This document shows, one piece after another, positions 2,002 through 36,151 of a stretch of 39,536 nt of DNA. The DNA is from Escherichia phage NC-A. The DNA lies in sequence record MK310182, one strand, 5' to 3'. Numbering within the stretch: position 1 is the first letter of the stretch; the number at the start of each line of letters is the position of its first letter. A program made the position numbers and the translations under genes. The notes beneath the pieces were generated by a model. That model was not told where the DNA came from and made no database searches. It was given only the letters and a program-made list of their open reading frames with translations.

Positions 2002-3081
2002 ATGAACATTACTGACATCACGAACGCAATCGACGCAATCAAAGCACTACCAATCTGTGAACTTGACAAGCGCCAAGGTATGCTCATCGACTTACTGGTC
2101 GAGATGGTCAATAGCGAGACATGCGATGGAGATATAACCGAACTGCATCAGTGTCTCGAGGCGCAAGATTGGTGGGCTACCTTGAAGTGTCTCACGGCTG
2201 ACGCTGGATTCAAGATGCTCGGTAATGGTCACTTCTCGGCTGCCTATAGTCACCCTCTGCTGCCTAAACGAGTTATTAAGGTGGGCTTTAAGAAAGAGGA
2301 CTCAGGCGCTGCGTATACCGCATTCTGCCGCATGTATCAGGGTCGCGCTGGTATCCCTAACATCTATGATGTACAGCGTCACGCTGGGTGCTATACGGTG
2401 GTTCTTGATGCACTCAACGACTGTGAATCGTATGATAATGAGGTGCACGATAAATATGCTGGGATTGCAAGCGATATTATTGACTGCAAATCGGCTGCAT
2501 ATGATAAGCGTACCGGATGGGATGGGGAGTTCGTCGAGACTTGCAAGCTAATCCGCAAGTTCTTTGAGGGCATCGCCTCGTTCGATATGCATAGTGGTAA
2601 CATCATGTTCGACGATAACGATGTGCCGTACATTACTGACCCTGTGTCATTCTCGCACAAGAAAGACGGTGGCGCTTTCAGTATTGACCCTGAGGAACTC
2701 ATTAAGGAAGTCGAGGAGGTAGCACTACAGAGGGCAATAGACCGCGCTAAGGCACGCAAGGTACGCCACGAGGGGCGCTTAGAGAAGCGTAGAATGAAAC
2801 GTCGCAACCGTAAGGCACGTAAAGCACACCGCGAAAAGTGCCAACGAAAGGTTGCACTTATGAACATAGCAAGAGGCCAGGACTGGCGCAATCACGTCAG
2901 AGTAAGGGATGCCATTGGTACAGTCAGACACGCAAACGCATGGGCACAAATGCAGCTTGCGGACTTTAAGGCGCTTGAAGAACGCATAGCGGCCCATTGG
3001 CTCGTAGCTGACAGGATGGCTATCGCTAACGGGCTGCCACTTAACATCGACAAGAAACTTGACGCAATGCTAATGGGCTGA
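2002..3081 (+). CDS. 0.7: Gene 0.7 Ser/Thr protein kinase, host shut-off (359 aa)
   Basis: Same length as T7 gp0.7; basic C-terminal tail. Confidence 0.95.
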
Positions 3082-3084
3082 TAG

Positions 3085-3150
3085 TCTTATCTTACAGGTC
3101 ATCTACGGGTGGCCTGAATAGATACGATTTACTAACCGAAAGAGGCGCTA
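3085..3150 (+). promoter_or_regulatory. RNase III site R1 region (approximate)
   Basis: Imperfect inverted repeat CAGGTCATC...GGTGGCCTG just upstream of gene 1. Confidence 0.4.
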
Positions 3151-3151
3151 A

Positions 3152-5803
3152 ATGAACACGATTAACATCGCTAAGAACGACTTCTCTGACATCGAACTGG
3201 CTGCTATCCCTTTCAATACTCTCGCTGACCATTACGGTGAGCGTTTAGCTCGTGAGCAACTAGCTCTTGAGCATGAGTCTTACGAGATGGGTGAAGCACG
3301 CTTCCGCAAGATGTTTGAGCGTCAACTTAAGGCGGGTGAGGTTGCTGATAACGCTGCTGCAAAGCCTCTAATTGCTACCCTGCTACCCAAGATGATTGCA
3401 CGCATCAACGAGTGGTTTGAGGAGGTACAAGCTAAGCGTGGCAAGCGTCCAACAGCTTTCCAATTCCTGCAAGAAATAAAACCGGAAGCCGTAGCGTACA
3501 TCACCATTAAGACAACGCTGGCTTGCCTAACGAGCGTAGACAATACAACCGTTCAGGCTGTAGCCAGTGCAATCGGTCGAGCTATCGAGGATGAGGCTCG
3601 CTTTGGTCACATCCGTGACCTTGAAGCTAAGCACTTCAAGAAACGCGTTGAGGAACAGCTTAACAAGCGCGTAGGTCACGTCTACAAGAAAGCATTTATG
3701 CAAGTTGTCGAGGCTGACATGCTCTCCAAAGGTCTACTGGGTGGAGAGGCGTGGTCTTCGTGGCACAAGGAGGACTCAATTCATGTAGGTGTGCGCTGCA
3801 TTGAGATGCTTATTGAGTCAACCGGAATGGTTAACTTACATCGTCAGAATGCTGGAGTTGTGGGCCAAGACTCTGAGACTATCGAACTCGCACCGGAATA
3901 CGCTGAGGCTATCGCCACTCGTGCTGGTGCACTGGCTGGTATTTCCCCAATGTTACAACCTTGTGTAGTTCCTCCTAAGCCTTGGACTGGTATTACTGGA
4001 GGTGGCTATTGGGCCAACGGTCGCCGCCCTCTGGCTCTGGTGCGTACTCACAGCAAGAAAGCACTGATGCGCTACGAAGATGTTTACATGCCTGAGGTGT
4101 ACAAGGCGATTAACATTGCGCAAAACACCGCATGGAAAATCAACAAGAAAGTCCTAGCGGTCGCCAACGTAATCACTAAGTGGAAGCATTGTCCGGTCGA
4201 GGATATCCCAGCGATTGAGCGTGAAGAACTCCCGATGAAACCGGAAGACATCGACACGAATCCTGAGGCTCTCACCGCTTGGAAACGCGCTGCTGCCGCT
4301 GTGTACCGTAAAGACAAGGCTCGCAAGTCCCGCCGTATCAGCCTTGAGTTCATGCTTGAGCAAGCCAATAAGTTCGCTAACCACAAAGCTATCTGGTTCC
4401 CTTACAATATGGACTGGCGCGGTCGTGTTTACGCTGTGTCAATGTTCAACCCGCAAGGTAACGACATGACCAAAGGGCTGCTAACACTGGCTAAAGGTAA
4501 ACCAATCGGCAAGGATGGTTTCTACTGGTTGAAGATTCATGGTGCTAACTGCGCGGGAGTTGACAAGGTTCCATTCCCTGAGCGCATCAAGTTCATTGAG
4601 GACAACCACGAGAACATCCTAGCATGCGCTAAGTCTCCTCTGGAGAACACTTGGTGGGCCGAACAAGATTCGCCGTTCTGCTTCTTAGCGTTCTGCTTTG
4701 AGTACGCTGGGGTACAGCACCACGGCTTAAGCTATAACTGCTCGCTGCCACTGGCGTTTGATGGGTCTTGCTCAGGTATCCAGCACTTCTCCGCAATGCT
4801 CCGCGATGAGGTAGGTGGTCGTGCTGTTAACCTCCTTCCTAGTGAAACCGTTCAGGACATCTACGGGATTGTTGCTAAGAAAGTTAACGAGATTCTCCAA
4901 GCTGACGTAATCAACGGGACCGACAACGAAGTAGTGACTGTGACCGATGAGAACACTGGCGAAATCTCTGAGAAAATCAAACTGGGTACTAAAGCACTGG
5001 CTGGTCAATGGCTGGCTTACGGTGTTACACGCAGTGTGACTAAGCGTTCAGTCATGACGTTGGCCTACGGGTCCAAAGAGTTCGGCTTTCGCCAGCAAGT
5101 CCTTGAGGATACCATTCAGCCAGCTATTGATTCCGGCAAGGGTCTGATGTTCACTCAACCTAATCAGGCCGCTGGGTACATGGCGAAACTGATTTGGGAA
5201 TCTGTGAGCGTGACCGTAGTCGCCGCTGTAAAGGCAATGAACTGGCTCAAGTCTGCCGCTAAGCTGCTGGCTGCTGAGGTCAAAGATAAGAAGACTGGAG
5301 AGATTCTTCGTAAGCGTTGCGCGGTACATTGGGTAACTCCTGATGGGTTCCCTGTGTGGCAGGAATACAAGAAGCCTATACAGACCCGCTTAAACCTCAT
5401 GTTCCTCGGTCAGTTCCGCTTACAGCCTACCATTAACACCAACAAGGATAGCGAGATTGATGCACACAAACAGGAGTCCGGTATCGCTCCGAACTTTGTT
5501 CACAGTCAAGATGGTAGCCACCTGCGTAAGACCGTAGTGTGGGCGCACGAGAAGTACGGAATCGAATCATTTGCGTTGATTCACGACTCATTCGGGACCA
5601 TTCCGGCAGACGCTGCCAACCTGTTCAAAGCTGTGCGCGAAACAATGGTTGACACTTATGAGTCTTGTGATGTACTGGCTGACTTCTACGGGCAGTTCGC
5701 AGACCAGCTTCACGAATCTCAATTGGATAAAATGCCAGCACTTCCGGCTAAAGGTAACTTGAATCTCCAAGACATCCTTAAGTCAGACTTTGCGTTCGCG
5801 TAA
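3152..5803 (+). CDS. 1: Gene 1 T7-type single-subunit RNA polymerase (883 aa)
   Basis: MNTINIAKNDFSDIELAAIPFNTLADHYGERLAREQ...; same length as T7 RNAP; genome carries cognate T7 promoters. Confidence 0.99.
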   Translation: MNTINIAKNDFSDIELAAIPFNTLADHYGERLAREQLALEHESYEMGEARFRKMFERQLKAGEVADNAAAKPLIATLLPKMIARINEWFEEVQAKRGKRPTAFQFLQEIKPEAVAYITIKTTLACLTSVDNTTVQAVASAIGRAIEDEARFGHIRDLEAKHFKKRVEEQLNKRVGHVYKKAFMQVVEADMLSKGLLGGEAWSSWHKEDSIHVGVRCIEMLIESTGMVNLHRQNAGVVGQDSETIELAPEYAEAIATRAGALAGISPMLQPCVVPPKPWTGITGGGYWANGRRPLALVRTHSKKALMRYEDVYMPEVYKAINIAQNTAWKINKKVLAVANVITKWKHCPVEDIPAIEREELPMKPEDIDTNPEALTAWKRAAAAVYRKDKARKSRRISLEFMLEQANKFANHKAIWFPYNMDWRGRVYAVSMFNPQGNDMTKGLLTLAKGKPIGKDGFYWLKIHGANCAGVDKVPFPERIKFIEDNHENILACAKSPLENTWWAEQDSPFCFLAFCFEYAGVQHHGLSYNCSLPLAFDGSCSGIQHFSAMLRDEVGGRAVNLLPSETVQDIYGIVAKKVNEILQADVINGTDNEVVTVTDENTGEISEKIKLGTKALAGQWLAYGVTRSVTKRSVMTLAYGSKEFGFRQQVLEDTIQPAIDSGKGLMFTQPNQAAGYMAKLIWESVSVTVVAAVKAMNWLKSAAKLLAAEVKDKKTGEILRKRCAVHWVTPDGFPVWQEYKKPIQTRLNLMFLGQFRLQPTINTNKDSEIDAHKQESGIAPNFVHSQDGSHLRKTVVWAHEKYGIESFALIHDSFGTIPADAANLFKAVRETMVDTYESCDVLADFYGQFADQLHESQLDKMPALPAKGNLNLQDILKSDFAFA

Positions 5804-29491: not shown

Positions 29492-32400
29492 ATGGATAAG
29501 TACGATAAGAACGTACCAAGTGAATATGATGGTCTGTTCCAGAAGGCGGCTGATGCCAACGGGGTCTCTTATGACCTTTTACGTAAAGTCGCTTGGACGG
29601 AATCACGGTTTAAACCCACAGCTAAATCAAAGACTGGACCATTGGGCATGATGCAGTTCACCAAGGCAACCTCTAAGGCAATGGGACTGCGTGTTACCGA
29701 TGGGCCAGACGATGACCGACTGAATCCTGAGTTGGCTATCAACGCTGCCGCTAAGCACCTTGCGGGTCTGGTAGGCAAGTTTGATGGTGACGAACTCAAA
29801 GCTGCCCTTGCGTATAACCAAGGCGAGGGACGCTTGGGTAGTCCACAACTTGAGGCGTACTCTAAGGGAGACTTCTCGTCCATCTCTGAGGAAGGACGTA
29901 ATTATATGCGTAGCCTTCTGGATGTCGCTAAGTCTCCTATGGCTGGACAGTTGGAAGCATTCGGTGGTATCACCCCAAAGGGTAAAGGCATTCCGGCTGA
30001 CGTTGGACTAGCTGGAATCAGCCACAGTCAGAAAGTAACACAGGAACTTCCTGAGTCTACAAGTTTTGACGTTAAAGGTATCGAACAGGAGGCTCCGGCG
30101 AAACCATTCGCCAAGGACTTTTGGGAGACCCACGGAGAAACACTTGATGAGTACAACAAGCGTTCAACCTTCTTCGGATTCAAAGATGCTACCAAAGCTG
30201 TACTATCCAACTCAGTCGCTGGGATGGCTTTCCGTGCTGGTCGTCTTGATAATGGTTTTGATGTGTTTAAAGACACCATTACGCCGACTCGCTGGAACTC
30301 TCACATCTGGACTCCAGAAGAGTTAGAGAAGATTCGAACCGAGGTTAAGAACCCTGCGTACATCAATGTGGTAACTGGTGGTTCTCCTGAGAACCTTGAC
30401 GACCTCATTAAGCTGGCTAACGAGAACTTTGAGAATGACTCCCGTGCTGCCGAAGCTGGTCTAGGTGCTAAACTTAGTGCTGGCGTTATCGGCGCTGGCG
30501 TGGACCCACTCAGCTATGTTCCTATGGTCGGTGTGACTGGTAAGGGCTTTAAGCTAGTCAATAAGGCCCTTGTAGTTGGTGCCGAAAGTGCTGCACTTAA
30601 CGTTGCATCCGAAGGTCTCCGCACATCCGTAGCTGGTGGTAACGCTGACTACTCAGGTGCTGCTTTGGGTGGCTTTTTGTTTGGTGCTGGTATGTCCGCA
30701 ATCAGTGACGCTGTAGCTGCTGGACTGAAACGCAATAAGCCAGAAGTTGAGTTCGACAATGAGTTCATTGGTCCTATGATGCGAATGGAAGCCCGTGAGA
30801 CAGCACGCAACGCAAACTCTACGGACCTCTCTCGGATGAACACTGAGAACATGAAGTTTGAAGGTGAACATAACGGTATTCCTTATGAGGACTTACCGAC
30901 CGAGAAAGGTGCCGTGGTGTTACATGATGGCTCCGTTATAAGCGCAAGCAACCCAACCAACCCTAAGACTCTCAAAGAGTTCTCTGAGGTTGACCCTGAG
31001 AAGGCTGCGCGAGGAATCAAACTTGCTGGGTTCACCGAGATAGGCTTGAAGACCTTGGGGTCTGACGATGCTGACATCCGTAGAGTGGCTATCGACCTCG
31101 TTCGCTCTCCTACTGGTATGCAGTCTGGTTCCTCAGGTAAGTTCGGCGCAACAGCTTCTGACATCCACGAGAGACTTCATAGTACTGACCAGCGTACTTA
31201 TAACGACCTGTACAAAGCAATGTCTGACGCGATGAAAGACCCTGAGTTCTCCACTGGTGGTGCTAAGATGTCTCGTGAAGAGACTCGCTACACTATCTAC
31301 CGTAGAGCGGCATTGGCTATTGAGCGTCCAGAACTACAGAAGGCGCTCACTCCATCTGAGCGTATCGTAATGGACATCATTAAGCGCCACTTTGACACTA
31401 AGCGTGAACTCATGGAGAATCCAGCAATCTTCGGTAATACGAAGGCTGTAAGCATCTTCCCAGAGAGTCGTCATAAGGGAACATACGTTCCTCATGTTTA
31501 TGACCGCCACGCTAAGGCGTTGATGATTCAACGGTACGGTGCTGAAGGTTTACAGGAGGCCATCAAGAAGTCATGGCTAGCAAGTTATGTGTCAAGACCT
31601 GAAGTCAAGGCGCGAGTGGACGAGATGTTGGTAGAGCAGTTACGGGCATCTCAACCAACAGGTAAGACTGCGGGTACTACACCTAATAAGCACTCTTCTA
31701 TCGACACAGCACGTTACCAGATGAAACTGGATGATGCAGCTACACAGGCAAGTGATAAGGTATCGGAACTAAAAGACGTCCTAACAAACGCTGAGAAGCG
31801 AGTTGCGGACCGTGAAAGGAAACTCCAGAACTCCAAGGACAGACTAGCTTCTCATGAGGCTAAGCTGAGGGAGTTGGAAGAAAAACTAGCTGCTAAACCT
31901 AATAGCAAAACCATTCCTGTTAAGATTGAGAGCCGGAAGCAGATGATTGAGACCCAGAAGTCTCACGTCCGTATTAACACAGAGCGTCTCGACTACATGA
32001 AAGGACAGGCTGCTAGGGTCCAAGACAGAATCACCAAAGCCACCGCCGAAGCTGAAGCAGCAGCCTCCGCTGCCAAATGGCAGAAGACTACTGTTGACGG
32101 TGAGGGCACTACTGCTGGTGAGACTATATCAGGTAACGCACCTCAATCAGTACAAGAGGTGACTATGGATATGGTCGAGAAGTACGCTATGGACAAGGCA
32201 TATGGTATCTCCCACTCTGACAAGTTCTCCAACAGCTCCGTGATTGAAGAGAACATTGAGGGCCTAGTAGGTATTGAGAACAACTCGTTCCTTGAAGCCC
32301 GTAACTTGTTTGATTCTGACATATCTATCACAATGCCTGATGGACAACAGTTTGCGGTGAACGACCTAAGGGACTTCGATATGTTCCGCATCATGCCAGC

Positions 32401-33952
32401 GTATGACCGCCGTATTAATGGTGACATCGCCATCATGGGGTCTACTGGTAAAACCACTAAGGAACTTAAGGATGAGATTTTGGCTCTCAAAGCGAAAGCT
32501 GAGGGTGACGGGAAGAAGACTGGCGAGGTTCATGCTCTCATGGATACCGTTAAGATTCTTACTGGTCGTGCTCGACGCAATCAGGACACTGTGTGGGAAA
32601 CATCGATGCGAGCCATCAATGACCTAGGGTTCTTCGCTAAGAACGCCTATATGGGTGCTCAGAACCTTACGGAGATTGCTGGTATGTTTGCCACAGGTAA
32701 CGTGCGTGCTCTCGGTCACGGTATCCCAATTCTGCGCGATACACTTTACAAGTCTAAACCAGTTTCCGCTAAGGAACTCAAGGAACTCCATGCGTCTCTG
32801 TTCGGGAAGGAGGTGGACCAGTTGATTCGCCCTAAACGTGCTGACATTGTACAGCGCCTAAGGGAAGCGACTGATACAGGACCTGCTGTGTCGAACATCG
32901 TAGGGACCTTGAAGTATACCACACAGGAACTGGCTGCTCGCTCTCCGTGGACTAAGATGCTGAACGGAACCACTAACTACCTTCTGGATGCTGCGCGTCA
33001 AGGTATGCTTGGGGACGTTATCAGTGCTACCTTAACAGGTAAGACTACCCGCTGGGAGAAAGAGGGATTCCTTCGTGGAGCCTCCGTAACTCCTGAGCAG
33101 ATGGCTGGCATCAAGTCTCTCATCAAGGAACACATGGTCCGTGGTGAGGACGGGAAGTTTACCGTTAAGGACAAGCAAGCGTTCTCTATGGACCCACGAG
33201 CTATGGACTTATGGCGACTGGCTGACAAGGTAGCTGATGAGGCAATGCTGCGTCCGCACAAGGTGTCCTTACAGGATTCCCATGCGTTCGGAGCATTAGG
33301 TAAGATGGTTATGCAGTTTAAGTCTTTCACCATTAAATCCCTTAACTCTAAGTTCGTGAGGACCTTCTATGATGGCTACAAGAACAACCGAGCCATTGAC
33401 GCTGCGCTGACTAGTATCATCTCTATGGGTCTCGCTGGCGGTTACTACGCTATGGCTGCACACGTCAAAGCGTATGGAATGCCTAAGGAGCAACGTAAAG
33501 AATACTTGGAGCGCGCATTGGACCCAAAAATGATTGCCCACGCTTCGTTGTCTCGTAGTTCTCAATTGGGTGCGCCTTTGGCTATGGCTGACCTAGTTGG
33601 TGGTATCTTAGGGGTCGAGTCCTCCAAGATGGTTCGCTCCACGATTCTACCTAAGGACACCATGAAGGAACGTGACCCAAACAAACCGTACACCTCAAGA
33701 GAGGTAATGGGGGCTATGGGTTCTAACCTTCTGGAGCAGATGCCTTCCGCTGGCTTTGTGGCTAACGTAGGGGCCTCCCTAATGAATGCTGCTGGTGTTG
33801 TTAACTCGCCTAACAAGGCAACCGAGCAGGACTTCATGACTGGCTTAATGAACTCGACCAAAGAGTTAGTGCCTAACGACCCTCTGACTCAACAGCTTGT
33901 GTTGAAGATTTATGAGGCGAATGGTGTCAACTTGAAGGAGCGTCGGAAATAA
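29492..33952 (+). CDS. 16: Gene 16 internal virion protein D with N-terminal lytic transglycosylase domain (1486 aa)
   Basis: N-terminus MDKYDKNVPSEYDGLFQKAADANGVSYDLLRKVAWTESRF (SLT motif); rest collinear with T7 gp16 apart from an extra internal segment. Confidence 0.97.
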   Translation: MDKYDKNVPSEYDGLFQKAADANGVSYDLLRKVAWTESRFKPTAKSKTGPLGMMQFTKATSKAMGLRVTDGPDDDRLNPELAINAAAKHLAGLVGKFDGDELKAALAYNQGEGRLGSPQLEAYSKGDFSSISEEGRNYMRSLLDVAKSPMAGQLEAFGGITPKGKGIPADVGLAGISHSQKVTQELPESTSFDVKGIEQEAPAKPFAKDFWETHGETLDEYNKRSTFFGFKDATKAVLSNSVAGMAFRAGRLDNGFDVFKDTITPTRWNSHIWTPEELEKIRTEVKNPAYINVVTGGSPENLDDLIKLANENFENDSRAAEAGLGAKLSAGVIGAGVDPLSYVPMVGVTGKGFKLVNKALVVGAESAALNVASEGLRTSVAGGNADYSGAALGGFLFGAGMSAISDAVAAGLKRNKPEVEFDNEFIGPMMRMEARETARNANSTDLSRMNTENMKFEGEHNGIPYEDLPTEKGAVVLHDGSVISASNPTNPKTLKEFSEVDPEKAARGIKLAGFTEIGLKTLGSDDADIRRVAIDLVRSPTGMQSGSSGKFGATASDIHERLHSTDQRTYNDLYKAMSDAMKDPEFSTGGAKMSREETRYTIYRRAALAIERPELQKALTPSERIVMDIIKRHFDTKRELMENPAIFGNTKAVSIFPESRHKGTYVPHVYDRHAKALMIQRYGAEGLQEAIKKSWLASYVSRPEVKARVDEMLVEQLRASQPTGKTAGTTPNKHSSIDTARYQMKLDDAATQASDKVSELKDVLTNAEKRVADRERKLQNSKDRLASHEAKLRELEEKLAAKPNSKTIPVKIESRKQMIETQKSHVRINTERLDYMKGQAARVQDRITKATAEAEAAASAAKWQKTTVDGEGTTAGETISGNAPQSVQEVTMDMVEKYAMDKAYGISHSDKFSNSSVIEENIEGLVGIENNSFLEARNLFDSDISITMPDGQQFAVNDLRDFDMFRIMPAYDRRINGDIAIMGSTGKTTKELKDEILALKAKAEGDGKKTGEVHALMDTVKILTGRARRNQDTVWETSMRAINDLGFFAKNAYMGAQNLTEIAGMFATGNVRALGHGIPILRDTLYKSKPVSAKELKELHASLFGKEVDQLIRPKRADIVQRLREATDTGPAVSNIVGTLKYTTQELAARSPWTKMLNGTTNYLLDAARQGMLGDVISATLTGKTTRWEKEGFLRGASVTPEQMAGIKSLIKEHMVRGEDGKFTVKDKQAFSMDPRAMDLWRLADKVADEAMLRPHKVSLQDSHAFGALGKMVMQFKSFTIKSLNSKFVRTFYDGYKNNRAIDAALTSIISMGLAGGYYAMAAHVKAYGMPKEQRKEYLERALDPKMIAHASLSRSSQLGAPLAMADLVGGILGVESSKMVRSTILPKDTMKERDPNKPYTSREVMGAMGSNLLEQMPSAGFVANVGASLMNAAGVVNSPNKATEQDFMTGLMNSTKELVPNDPLTQQLVLKIYEANGVNLKERRK

Positions 33953-34024: not shown

Positions 34025-35899
34025 ATGGCTAACGTAATTAAAACCGTTTTGACTTACCAGTTAGATGGCTCCAATCGTGATTTTAATATCCCGTTTGAGT
34101 ATCTAGCCCGTAAGTTCGTAGTGGTAACTCTTATTGGCGTAGACCGCAAGGTCCTTATGATTAATACAGACTACCGTTTTGCTACGCGTACTACCATCTC
34201 ACTGACTAAGGCTTGGGGGCCAGCGGACGGGTACACTACCATCGAGTTGCGCCGAGTAACCTCCACGACCGACAGATTGGTTGACTTTACGGATGGTTCA
34301 ATCCTCCGTGCGTATGACCTTAACGTGGCTCAGATTCAGACGGTGCATGTAGCGGAAGAGGCCCGTGACCTGACTGCGGATACCATTGGTGTCAATAACG
34401 ATGGTCACTTGGATGCCCGTGGTCGTCGTATCGTCAACCTAGCGAACGCTGTGGATGACCGTGATGCTGTTCCATTTGGTCAACTTAAGGCCATGAATCA
34501 GAACTCGTGGCAGGCACGTAACGAAGCCTTACAGTTCCGCAATGAGGCTGAGACTTTCCGTAACCAAGCGGAGGGCTTTAAGAACGAGTCCGGCACGAAC
34601 GCTACGAATACCTATAAGTGGCGTAATGAGGCTGAGGGATTCCGTAATGAGGCTGAGCAGTTCAAGAATACTGCGACACAACAGGCTACCGCTGCTGGCG
34701 GCTCTGCGGCTGCTGCTCGCCAATCTGAGGTGAACGCTGCTGCCTCCGCTGCTGCTTCCGCTAACTCTGCTACTTTGGCAGAACAGCAAGCAGACCGTGC
34801 GGAACGTGAGGCGGATAAGTTGGGTAACTGGAATGCGCTTGCAGGAGCCATTGAGGGCGTTAATGAGAACGATGTAACGTTCAAAGGAGATATTAAAACC
34901 CCAATGGATGTTGAAGCTGGTGGACTGATATCCACTGGAGCAGGTCATATTACGAAGGGCTTAAGTGTTGGTGAGGCACTTGATGTTAAAGGGGTTACGG
35001 CTCTCCATAAGGATGTGTGGGTAGATGGTGTAGTTGTTGCCAATGGTGGCATACAACAACAATCAGCACCGAACACTTATAACGATATATGGAGGATGTT
35101 TATTAAAGGTGTACCAGCACACATCGGAAACCGACAAGGCCTTCACATAGGTTGGAACGAGACCAGCAATGGGGAGTCTGACTTTGTGACTAACAAAGGT
35201 GCAGGTGGTGGTGGTTTTGTTTTTCGCACGGTAAACTTTGAGAACTCTGCTGAGATAGGTCGCGTTACATTTATGGGTAACGGTGCAGTACGCGCCTTCG
35301 ATTTTCAGGCTGTTAATGGTGCTCGTATTGAGGCTGGAAATAATATAATTGGTGCAAGTATTTTCTCAGGAATGGGTAGCTGTCAATTTGATACTATGGG
35401 CAACTTACTTGGTGGTCTATGGAACAACGTTGGTGGTGATTTATATAACTACCTACAGAACAAGGCACACTTCGCTAAGCCGCCTGGAGGTGTTCAATTA
35501 TTTACCGCACGCGGTGTTGACTACCTTGAGGGCCTTGTGGATAACACAGCGGTTGGTTTCCGGTGGTTCCTGTCAGACAGAAGGCTTAAGGAAAACATAA
35601 AGGTTGTACGCTCCGCTGACGATATGCTTAATATTATCCGCTCGTACATCCCAGTTTCCTATAAGTATAAGGACTCTGAGTACACCGATAATCGTGGAAG
35701 AACCGTTACTGTTACTGGTAAGAAGTCTCGTGCAGGCTTCATTACTCAGGACCTGATCAGAATCTGGCCAGAAGCGGTAGATGTGTTGTCTGACGGAATG
35801 CAATCCCCAGACCCTAACCAAATCATCGGTGGGCTAATGCTGCTCGTTAAGAACCTAGATGAGCGGGTTCAGGAGCTAGAGAAGAAGAATAACGTTTAA
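34025..35899 (+). CDS. 17: Gene 17 tail fibre protein, chimeric (624 aa)
   Basis: Residues 1 to about 285 match T7 gp17 (MANVIKTVLTYQLDGSNRDFNIPFEYLARKF... and FRNEAE repeats); the C-terminal part is unrelated to T7 and ends in an intramolecular-chaperone-like domain. Confidence 0.95.
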   Translation: MANVIKTVLTYQLDGSNRDFNIPFEYLARKFVVVTLIGVDRKVLMINTDYRFATRTTISLTKAWGPADGYTTIELRRVTSTTDRLVDFTDGSILRAYDLNVAQIQTVHVAEEARDLTADTIGVNNDGHLDARGRRIVNLANAVDDRDAVPFGQLKAMNQNSWQARNEALQFRNEAETFRNQAEGFKNESGTNATNTYKWRNEAEGFRNEAEQFKNTATQQATAAGGSAAAARQSEVNAAASAAASANSATLAEQQADRAEREADKLGNWNALAGAIEGVNENDVTFKGDIKTPMDVEAGGLISTGAGHITKGLSVGEALDVKGVTALHKDVWVDGVVVANGGIQQQSAPNTYNDIWRMFIKGVPAHIGNRQGLHIGWNETSNGESDFVTNKGAGGGGFVFRTVNFENSAEIGRVTFMGNGAVRAFDFQAVNGARIEAGNNIIGASIFSGMGSCQFDTMGNLLGGLWNNVGGDLYNYLQNKAHFAKPPGGVQLFTARGVDYLEGLVDNTAVGFRWFLSDRRLKENIKVVRSADDMLNIIRSYIPVSYKYKDSEYTDNRGRTVTVTGKKSRAGFITQDLIRIWPEAVDVLSDGMQSPDPNQIIGGLMLLVKNLDERVQELEKKNNV

Positions 35900-35947
35900 G
35901 GATGACACCAGATTGAGACCAAGGAGGGTCTTTAATAAGGAGGAGAC

Positions 35948-36151
35948 ATGCTGTCTTTGGACTTCAATAATGAGTTAGTCAAGGCTGCACCTATTGTTGG
36001 CACTGGTGTGGCTGATGGCGCTGCGAGGCTTTTCTTTGGGCTGAGTCTTAATGAGTGGTTCTATGTTGCTGCTATCGCCTACACAGTGGTTCAGATTGGT
36101 GCCAAGGTAGTCGATAAGATGATTGACTGGAAGAAAGCCAATAAGGAGTGA
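35948..36151 (+). CDS. 17.5: Gene 17.5 class II holin (67 aa)
   Basis: MLSLDFNNELVKAAPIVGTGVADGAARLFFGLSLNEWFYVAAIAYTVVQIGAKVVDKMIDWKKANKE. Confidence 0.95.
   Translation: MLSLDFNNELVKAAPIVGTGVADGAARLFFGLSLNEWFYVAAIAYTVVQIGAKVVDKMIDWKKANKE

Follow-up and report, generated by a model that had tools for sequence, protein, structure and literature searches.

The podovirus Escherichia phage NC-A was isolated against adherent-invasive E. coli (accession MK310182; PMC8709489, PMC13293815), and its gene 17 raises the question of where a tail fibre that begins like that of T7 ceases to be T7-like, and what stands in place of the T7 tip. A sequence-only reading of the 39,536-nt stretch of DNA analysed here (the window) had described the product, gp17, as a chimera of a T7-like N-terminus and an unrelated receptor-binding module. 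The architecture, homologies, mosaic boundaries and invariant dyad reported below were observed directly, and we propose that gp17 would be a precursor of four parts, for docking (residues 1-162), shaft (163-291), distal fibre and receptor binding (292-516) and chaperone function (517-624). We put the probability of this explanation as a whole, comprising the modular architecture, the exchange, the autocleavage and a polysaccharide receptor, at about 0.85.

Gene 17 and its T7-type front half

The gene lies between a gene 16 homologue (internal virion protein, 29492..33952) and the holin gene 17.5, in the order of the T7 annotation and in the genome position of a T7 gp17-type fibre. Over its first 25 kb, the window has ~90.5% nucleotide identity to T7. 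Gp17 is 100% identical to QBG78753.1/YP_009820189.1, the tail fiber protein of Escherichia phage NC-A, and is covered in full by the PHROG 9502 profile (residues 1-623 against profile positions 1-646 of 647, E=7.5e-288). As judged from its sequence, the protein belongs to this phiYeO3-12-type gp17 family, and its membership of the T7 gp17 family is confined to the N-terminal 291 residues. Coordinates of the features are collected in Table 1.

Table 1. Features of the gene 17 region of phage NC-A, in window coordinates
Feature	Position	Strand	Basis
Gene 17, tail fibre precursor	34025..35899	+	Single intact ORF, 624 aa, 68.0 kDa
N-terminal tail-attachment domain, residues 1-162	34025..34510	+	Pfam PF03906, E=1.2e-72; alignments to PDB 7boz/8e4g
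Ala/Glu/Asn-rich shaft with FRNEAE repeats, residues 163-291	34511..34897	+	~75% identical to T7 and T3
5' crossover zone	34823..34896	+	Nucleotide alignment and sliding identity; T7/T3 identity decays and is gone after the KGDI codons (residues 288-290)
Putative distal fibre and receptor-binding module, residues 292-516, phiYeO3-12 type	34898..35572	+	BLASTP; PHROG 9502 positions 311-538
Conserved core block, residues 373-420 (LHIGWNE...NKGAGGGGFVFRTVN)	35141..35284	+	Low entropy; W, N, G, G and F (nearly) invariant in 71-74 homologues
GNLLGGLWNNVGGDLYNYL motif, residues 459-477	35399..35455	+	hhalign, PDB 4a0t profile match, multiple sequence alignment
phiCFP-1-like block	35500..36150	+	50-nt sliding identity, best-segment search: at least 86% in every window, mostly at least 0.9
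Predicted C-terminal intramolecular chaperone (Peptidase_S74), residues 517-624, 108 aa, 12.4 kDa	35573..35899	+	Pfam PF13884
Predicted autocleavage site and dyad Ser517...Lys522 (SDRRLK)	35573..35590	+	Ser517 aligns with S74 profile position 1
Gene 17.5, holin, 67 aa	35948..36151	+	ORF and homologous-locus annotation; 5' half in non-T7 block

Residues 1-162 are 98% identical to T7 in amino acids and carry the PF03906 domain of T7 gp17-type fibres; they would attach the trimer to the tail in the manner of T7. The following residues would form a T7-type shaft, presumably a coiled coil. In a phmmer search of the PDB, T7 gp17 aligned to residues 1-291 and not beyond, in keeping with the T7-type N-terminus proposed by the sequence-only reading. 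The motifs quoted in that reading are all present: FRNEAE at residues 171 and 206, LAGAIEG at 272, NKGAGGGGFVF at 390 and GGLWNNVGGD at 463.

Measured in 200-nt windows, nucleotide identity to T7 and T3 stays at 0.9-0.98 across gene 16 and the opening 480 nt of gene 17; for T7 alone it is 0.9-0.96 as far as ~34500. It falls to ~0.75 in the shaft and to the random level of 0.3-0.4 at ~34850-35950. The last element in common with T7 and T3 in the base-level alignment is the KG-I motif at residues 288-290. Position 34890, earlier given as the start of the foreign part, is accurate and falls within the crossover zone found by this breakpoint alignment; the part marked from there to 35899 makes up the 3' 54% of the ORF. 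The breakpoint itself had been set at LAGAIEG, which is too early, as homology to T7 still includes LAGAI (residue 272); the break lies at about residue 291 (KGDIK).

Further observations were made at and near this locus. In the relative 64795_ec1 (2501..4373 of its locus), a frameshift just after KGDI, almost exactly at the module junction, splits gene 17 into two annotated CDSs, which reflects either an error in sequencing or a true pseudogene. The record of phage T3 (2426..2448 of its locus) has a T7-type promoter annotated just upstream of gene 17 that is not used by T3 RNA polymerase, and this promoter is an older recombination footprint at the gene 17 locus. In NC-A, gp16 has 1486 aa, compared with 1318 aa in T7, with a ~168-aa insertion at residues ~715-885 (window 31634..32150). 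The insertion is rich in Lys, Glu and Ala and looks like a coiled coil, with sub-threshold coiled-coil matches only in Pfam. The remainder of gp16 shows 84-100% identity to T7 in blocks of 50 aa, and among the loci compared the insert is common only to Yersinia phage vB_Yep_9 (0.93-0.96 nucleotide identity).

The distal module

Beyond the junction, BLASTP of residues 292-624 against T7 residues 291-553 gave no significant match (best E=1.5), and the high identity to the T7 tip that would speak against a chimera was therefore not seen. The pyramid and tip domain of the T7/T3 type (T7 residues 371-553, PDB 4a0t) is not found in gp17. The description of the C-terminus as unrelated to the T7 tip holds at the level of BLASTP, but a weak remote match exists in the GNxxGxxW..GGxLxxYL region (hhalign probability 65%, E=6e-5; profile match to PDB 4a0t, E=0.0036). 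The sole stretch with residual similarity to the C-terminal domain of T7 gp17 is GNLLGGLWNNVGGDLYNYL, which contains the second of the two Gly-rich stretches.

The distal part is 66% identical to phiYeO3-12 gp17 over 335 aa (BLASTP, E=2e-155). The module thus differs from T7, as had been noted, but it is a known, well-populated and partly characterized gp17 type (PHROG 9502). A distant blastn search located the C-terminal part in 36 phage records (Yersinia, Shigella, Enterobacter, Escherichia, Citrobacter, Klebsiella and Serratia phages). When the C-terminal 345 aa were used in a protein search, 5 matches were obtained with word indexing and 1041 when the search was repeated with alignment. 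A profile search of 5.8 billion proteins returned ~95 clusters (90% identity) that combine PF03906, PF13884 and the same module, many of them from complete T7-like contigs of ~39-40 kb. The core of the receptor-binding domain (RBD), residues 341-480, has no more than 85% identity to any other 90%-identity cluster matched, NC-A's own excluded.

No Pfam family matched residues 292-516. Among 1.84 billion representatives (50% identity), only two clusters matched these residues at E<=1e-30, together with 82 weaker matches (E<=1e-3) that were mostly local to residues ~360-480; of ten weaker matches sampled, six contained an S74 domain, and one contained the C-terminal domain of a gp53-like tail fibre. 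An AF2 monomer model, run as a structure-prediction check, is all-beta with two short helices (pLDDT 78). Residues 292-516 would be a beta-structured distal fibre and receptor-binding domain of the phiYeO3-12 type.

Variability within the family is highest at residues 289-372 and 421-480, and the conserved blocks comprise residues 373-420 (which contain NKGAGGGGFVF), 433-444 and 481-516, plus the chaperone. It is in the 373-420 block that distant S74-bearing fibres match the module as well. The two Gly-rich stretches singled out by the sequence-only reading are both present, but they are conserved structural motifs of the family and not variable specificity loops.

The predicted C-terminal chaperone and its autocleavage

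Pfam PF13884 (Peptidase_S74, 'chaperone of endosialidase') matches residues 517-585 of 624 with 48.0 bits against a cut-off of 22, a domain that the sequence-only reading had overlooked. The domain starts with SDRRLKEN, so that a Ser...Lys dyad, with the Lys five residues after the Ser, stands at the domain start as is characteristic of S74, and S517, D518 and K522 show no variation among 74 homologues. By these sequence criteria the C-terminus of gp17 is a Peptidase_S74 member. The roles assigned to the Ser and Lys of the dyad follow the endoNF literature. The chaperone would drive trimerization and folding of the distal part and, after the trimer has folded, would cut itself off N-terminal to Ser517 by means of the Ser517/Lys522 dyad. 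Mass spectrometry of phiYeO3-12 Gp17 has demonstrated autoproteolysis with release of a 12.242-kDa fragment (PMC8739404), and we calculate 12.259 kDa for a cut just before the equivalent Ser539. The Bas102 fibre has likewise been reported to have a C-terminal intramolecular chaperone (PMC11990801). Given the invariant dyad and an experimentally characterized homologue, autocleavage of NC-A gp17 is likely.

The mature fibre would then have 516 aa (55.7 kDa), with a tip built from residues upstream of 517, and a separate fragment of 12.4 kDa. As the last 108 aa are predicted to form a chaperone that is cut off, receptor binding would be limited to residues ~292-516. For the same reason, the extra 71 aa relative to T7 do not point to a longer fibre: the precursor is longer, as had been stated (624 against 553 aa), but the mature form is predicted to be 37 aa shorter.

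Comparison with characterized fibres

The T7 fibre protein (553 aa; PDB 7boz, 4a0t) resembles NC-A gp17 in its homologous residues 1-291, its genome position and its function as one of six trimeric fibres. Unlike NC-A gp17, it carries a pyramid and tip domain (residues 371-553), and it has neither a chaperone nor a cleavage step. NC-A gp17 would work in the way of phiYeO3-12 Gp17 and Bas102 gp17. The phiYeO3-12 protein (NP_052117, 645 aa) has the same distal module and chaperone (the latter 86% identical) and the SDRRLKE cleavage motif; identity is 75% in the N-terminal domain and 35% in the shaft (Teetrevirus type), and only 54% in the RBD core, so that a different specificity is to be expected.

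NC-A is matched in its combination of T7-type front, RBD type and S74 chaperone by vB_Yep_9, ESh1, 64795_ec1 and MeretOppenheim (Bas102). These four GenBank Teseptimaviruses are 83-86% identical to NC-A in nucleotides over the full length; their RBD cores are 71-84% identical, residues 292-340 only 61-67%, and they differ from NC-A in hosts and O-types. The endosialidase gp17 of K1F follows the same general plan, with a T7-type adaptor and a cleavable C-terminal chaperone, but carries a large catalytic domain, whereas the NC-A chaperone follows a short, apparently non-enzymatic fibre module. Other S74-bearing proteins are T5 pb1 (PDB 4uw8, a siphovirus side fibre) and the endoNF chaperone (PDB 3gw6).

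Mosaicism of the distal block

Relative to T7, the distal block is common to phages of another genus and of other hosts, which supports the proposal that a module was exchanged horizontally. Identities calculated per segment for 120 homologues indicate that N-terminal domain, shaft, RBD and chaperone reassort independently. In phiCFP-1 the fibre has a 98% identical chaperone and no other segment in common with NC-A. The P0023 fibre is 92-97% identical in the shaft and residues 292-340 and only 77% in the core. In gp17 of Escherichia phage HZ2R8, the T7-type N-terminal domain and the chaperone are both 96% identical, and the shaft (37%) and RBD (12-48%) are not retained; by these segment identities, it is a clear case of a chaperone kept while the RBD was swapped.

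The stretch marked by the sequence-only reading ends with gene 17 at 35899. However, positions 35709-36132 are 97.9% identical (424 nt) to Citrobacter phage phiCFP-1 (Teetrevirus), compared with 50-70% for the phiCFP-1 flanks, and the phiCFP-1-like block as a whole takes in the larger part of both the chaperone and the holin gene, together with the spacer between the two genes. In its 5' half, the holin gene is nearly identical to phiCFP-1 and ~70-76% identical to T7, and T7-like identity is back at ~36050. Since non-T7 identity persists to that point, inside the holin gene, the exchanged cassette reaches ~150 nt past 35899.

The distal block (about 34.85-36.05 kb) would have been acquired by homologous recombination, for which we propose the conserved N-terminal domain and shaft as the 5' arm and, on the 3' side, the chaperone and holin, likewise conserved. 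The acquired piece is in its turn mosaic, with an RBD core nearest to E. coli and Shigella phages and a chaperone and holin near-identical to those of a Citrobacter phage. As to direction, either the T7/T3 type or the NC-A type could be the derived state.

The lower GC content noted for the distal codons is real but modest. Module GC is 0.455 against 0.488 for the genome (SD 0.018 in windows of equal size), a drop of ~1.8 SD, with 4% of equal-sized windows as low, and GC3 is 0.41 against 0.51. The same module has a GC of ~0.49 in phiYeO3-12 and phiCFP-1. Because module GC follows each carrier genome, composition points to no donor, and GC and codon composition were rejected as a sign of foreign origin.

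Receptor and alternative explanations

Two carriers of the module have been characterized with respect to their receptors. Gp17 of phiYeO3-12 binds the O:3 O-antigen (PMC8739404), and Bas102 infects E. coli K-12 only when O16 is restored, with a narrow, O16-restricted host range (PMC11990801). Since these relatives use O-antigen and the host on which NC-A was raised was a wild adherent-invasive strain, the NC-A receptor is probably, though by no great margin of confidence, O-antigen or another surface polysaccharide and not the rough LPS core used by T7. The literature on relatives thus agrees with the prediction of the sequence-only reading that the receptor would not be that of T7. The particular specificity of either relative is not transferable to NC-A, as identity in the RBD core is only 54% to phiYeO3-12 and 77% to Bas102.

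A fibre that has kept the LPS core of T7 as its receptor, with the new module altering affinity or breadth but not receptor class, is an unlikely alternative that nevertheless has arguments in its favour: the Studiervirinae tested on K-12 are generally LPS-core-dependent with flexible glycan recognition (PMC11990801), the two N-terminal modules of gp17 are of T7 type, and a faint T7-like motif remains in the distal part. What weighs against it is that the T7 tip domain is absent, that the characterized carriers of the module depend on O-antigen (O:3 for phiYeO3-12, O16 for Bas102), and that NC-A was not raised on a rough laboratory strain. Far less probable is that the C-terminal module acts enzymatically, as a tailspike with depolymerase or esterase activity, instead of being a simple binding fibre. 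S74 chaperones are classically joined to enzymatic spikes such as the K1F endosialidase, but only ~225 residues lie between shaft and chaperone in NC-A; neither a Pfam or catalytic domain, be it a catalytic beta-helix or a hydrolase, nor a structural match to a beta-helix depolymerase was found in the module, and the BASEL authors place the Bas102 homologue with single-RBD fibres, not tailspikes (PMC11990801). The depolymerase reading was rejected on the shortness of the module and the lack of a catalytic domain or beta-helix match.

The chance that the chimera is an assembly or annotation artefact joining two phages is close to negligible. Mixed-phage assemblies can create mosaic junctions within genes, and the relative 64795_ec1 is frameshifted at almost the same place. 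However, the gene 17 ORF of NC-A is intact, the junction and architecture recur in the independent phages vB_Yep_9, ESh1 and Bas102 and in dozens of metagenomic contigs of ~39-40 kb, and the loss of identity at the junction is gradual and runs through a protein motif that is conserved; the artefact was rejected on the intact ORF and the recurrence of the junction in independent isolates. A modular precursor with a polysaccharide-binding distal part remains the reading that we prefer.

Implications for T7-group phages

Exchange of the distal half of gp17 among T7-group phages is textbook knowledge, and the NC-A fibre is an ordinary example of host-recognition module swapping, already known in kind; the sequence-only reading was correct in its main lines. 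The genome is public, the family is catalogued and close homologues have been characterized, and the finding raises no new biological question. For annotation, the fibre is best labelled as a precursor with a cleavable Peptidase_S74 chaperone, in which the RBD module comprises only residues ~292-516.

Two further suggestions are offered tentatively, their joint probability being somewhat below one half: the RBD core may recognize a glycan of adherent-invasive E. coli that is new to T7-like fibres, and the chaperone together with the holin may constitute a dedicated 3' arm for exchange. If true, this 3' homology arm would let RBD cassettes move between genera, such as the Teseptimavirus of E. 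coli and the Teetrevirus of Citrobacter. For host-range engineering, the natural crossovers, at ~residue 291 on the 5' side and in the chaperone and holin on the 3' side, mark swap points on the T7 scaffold, and they also show that the chaperone must travel with its RBD.
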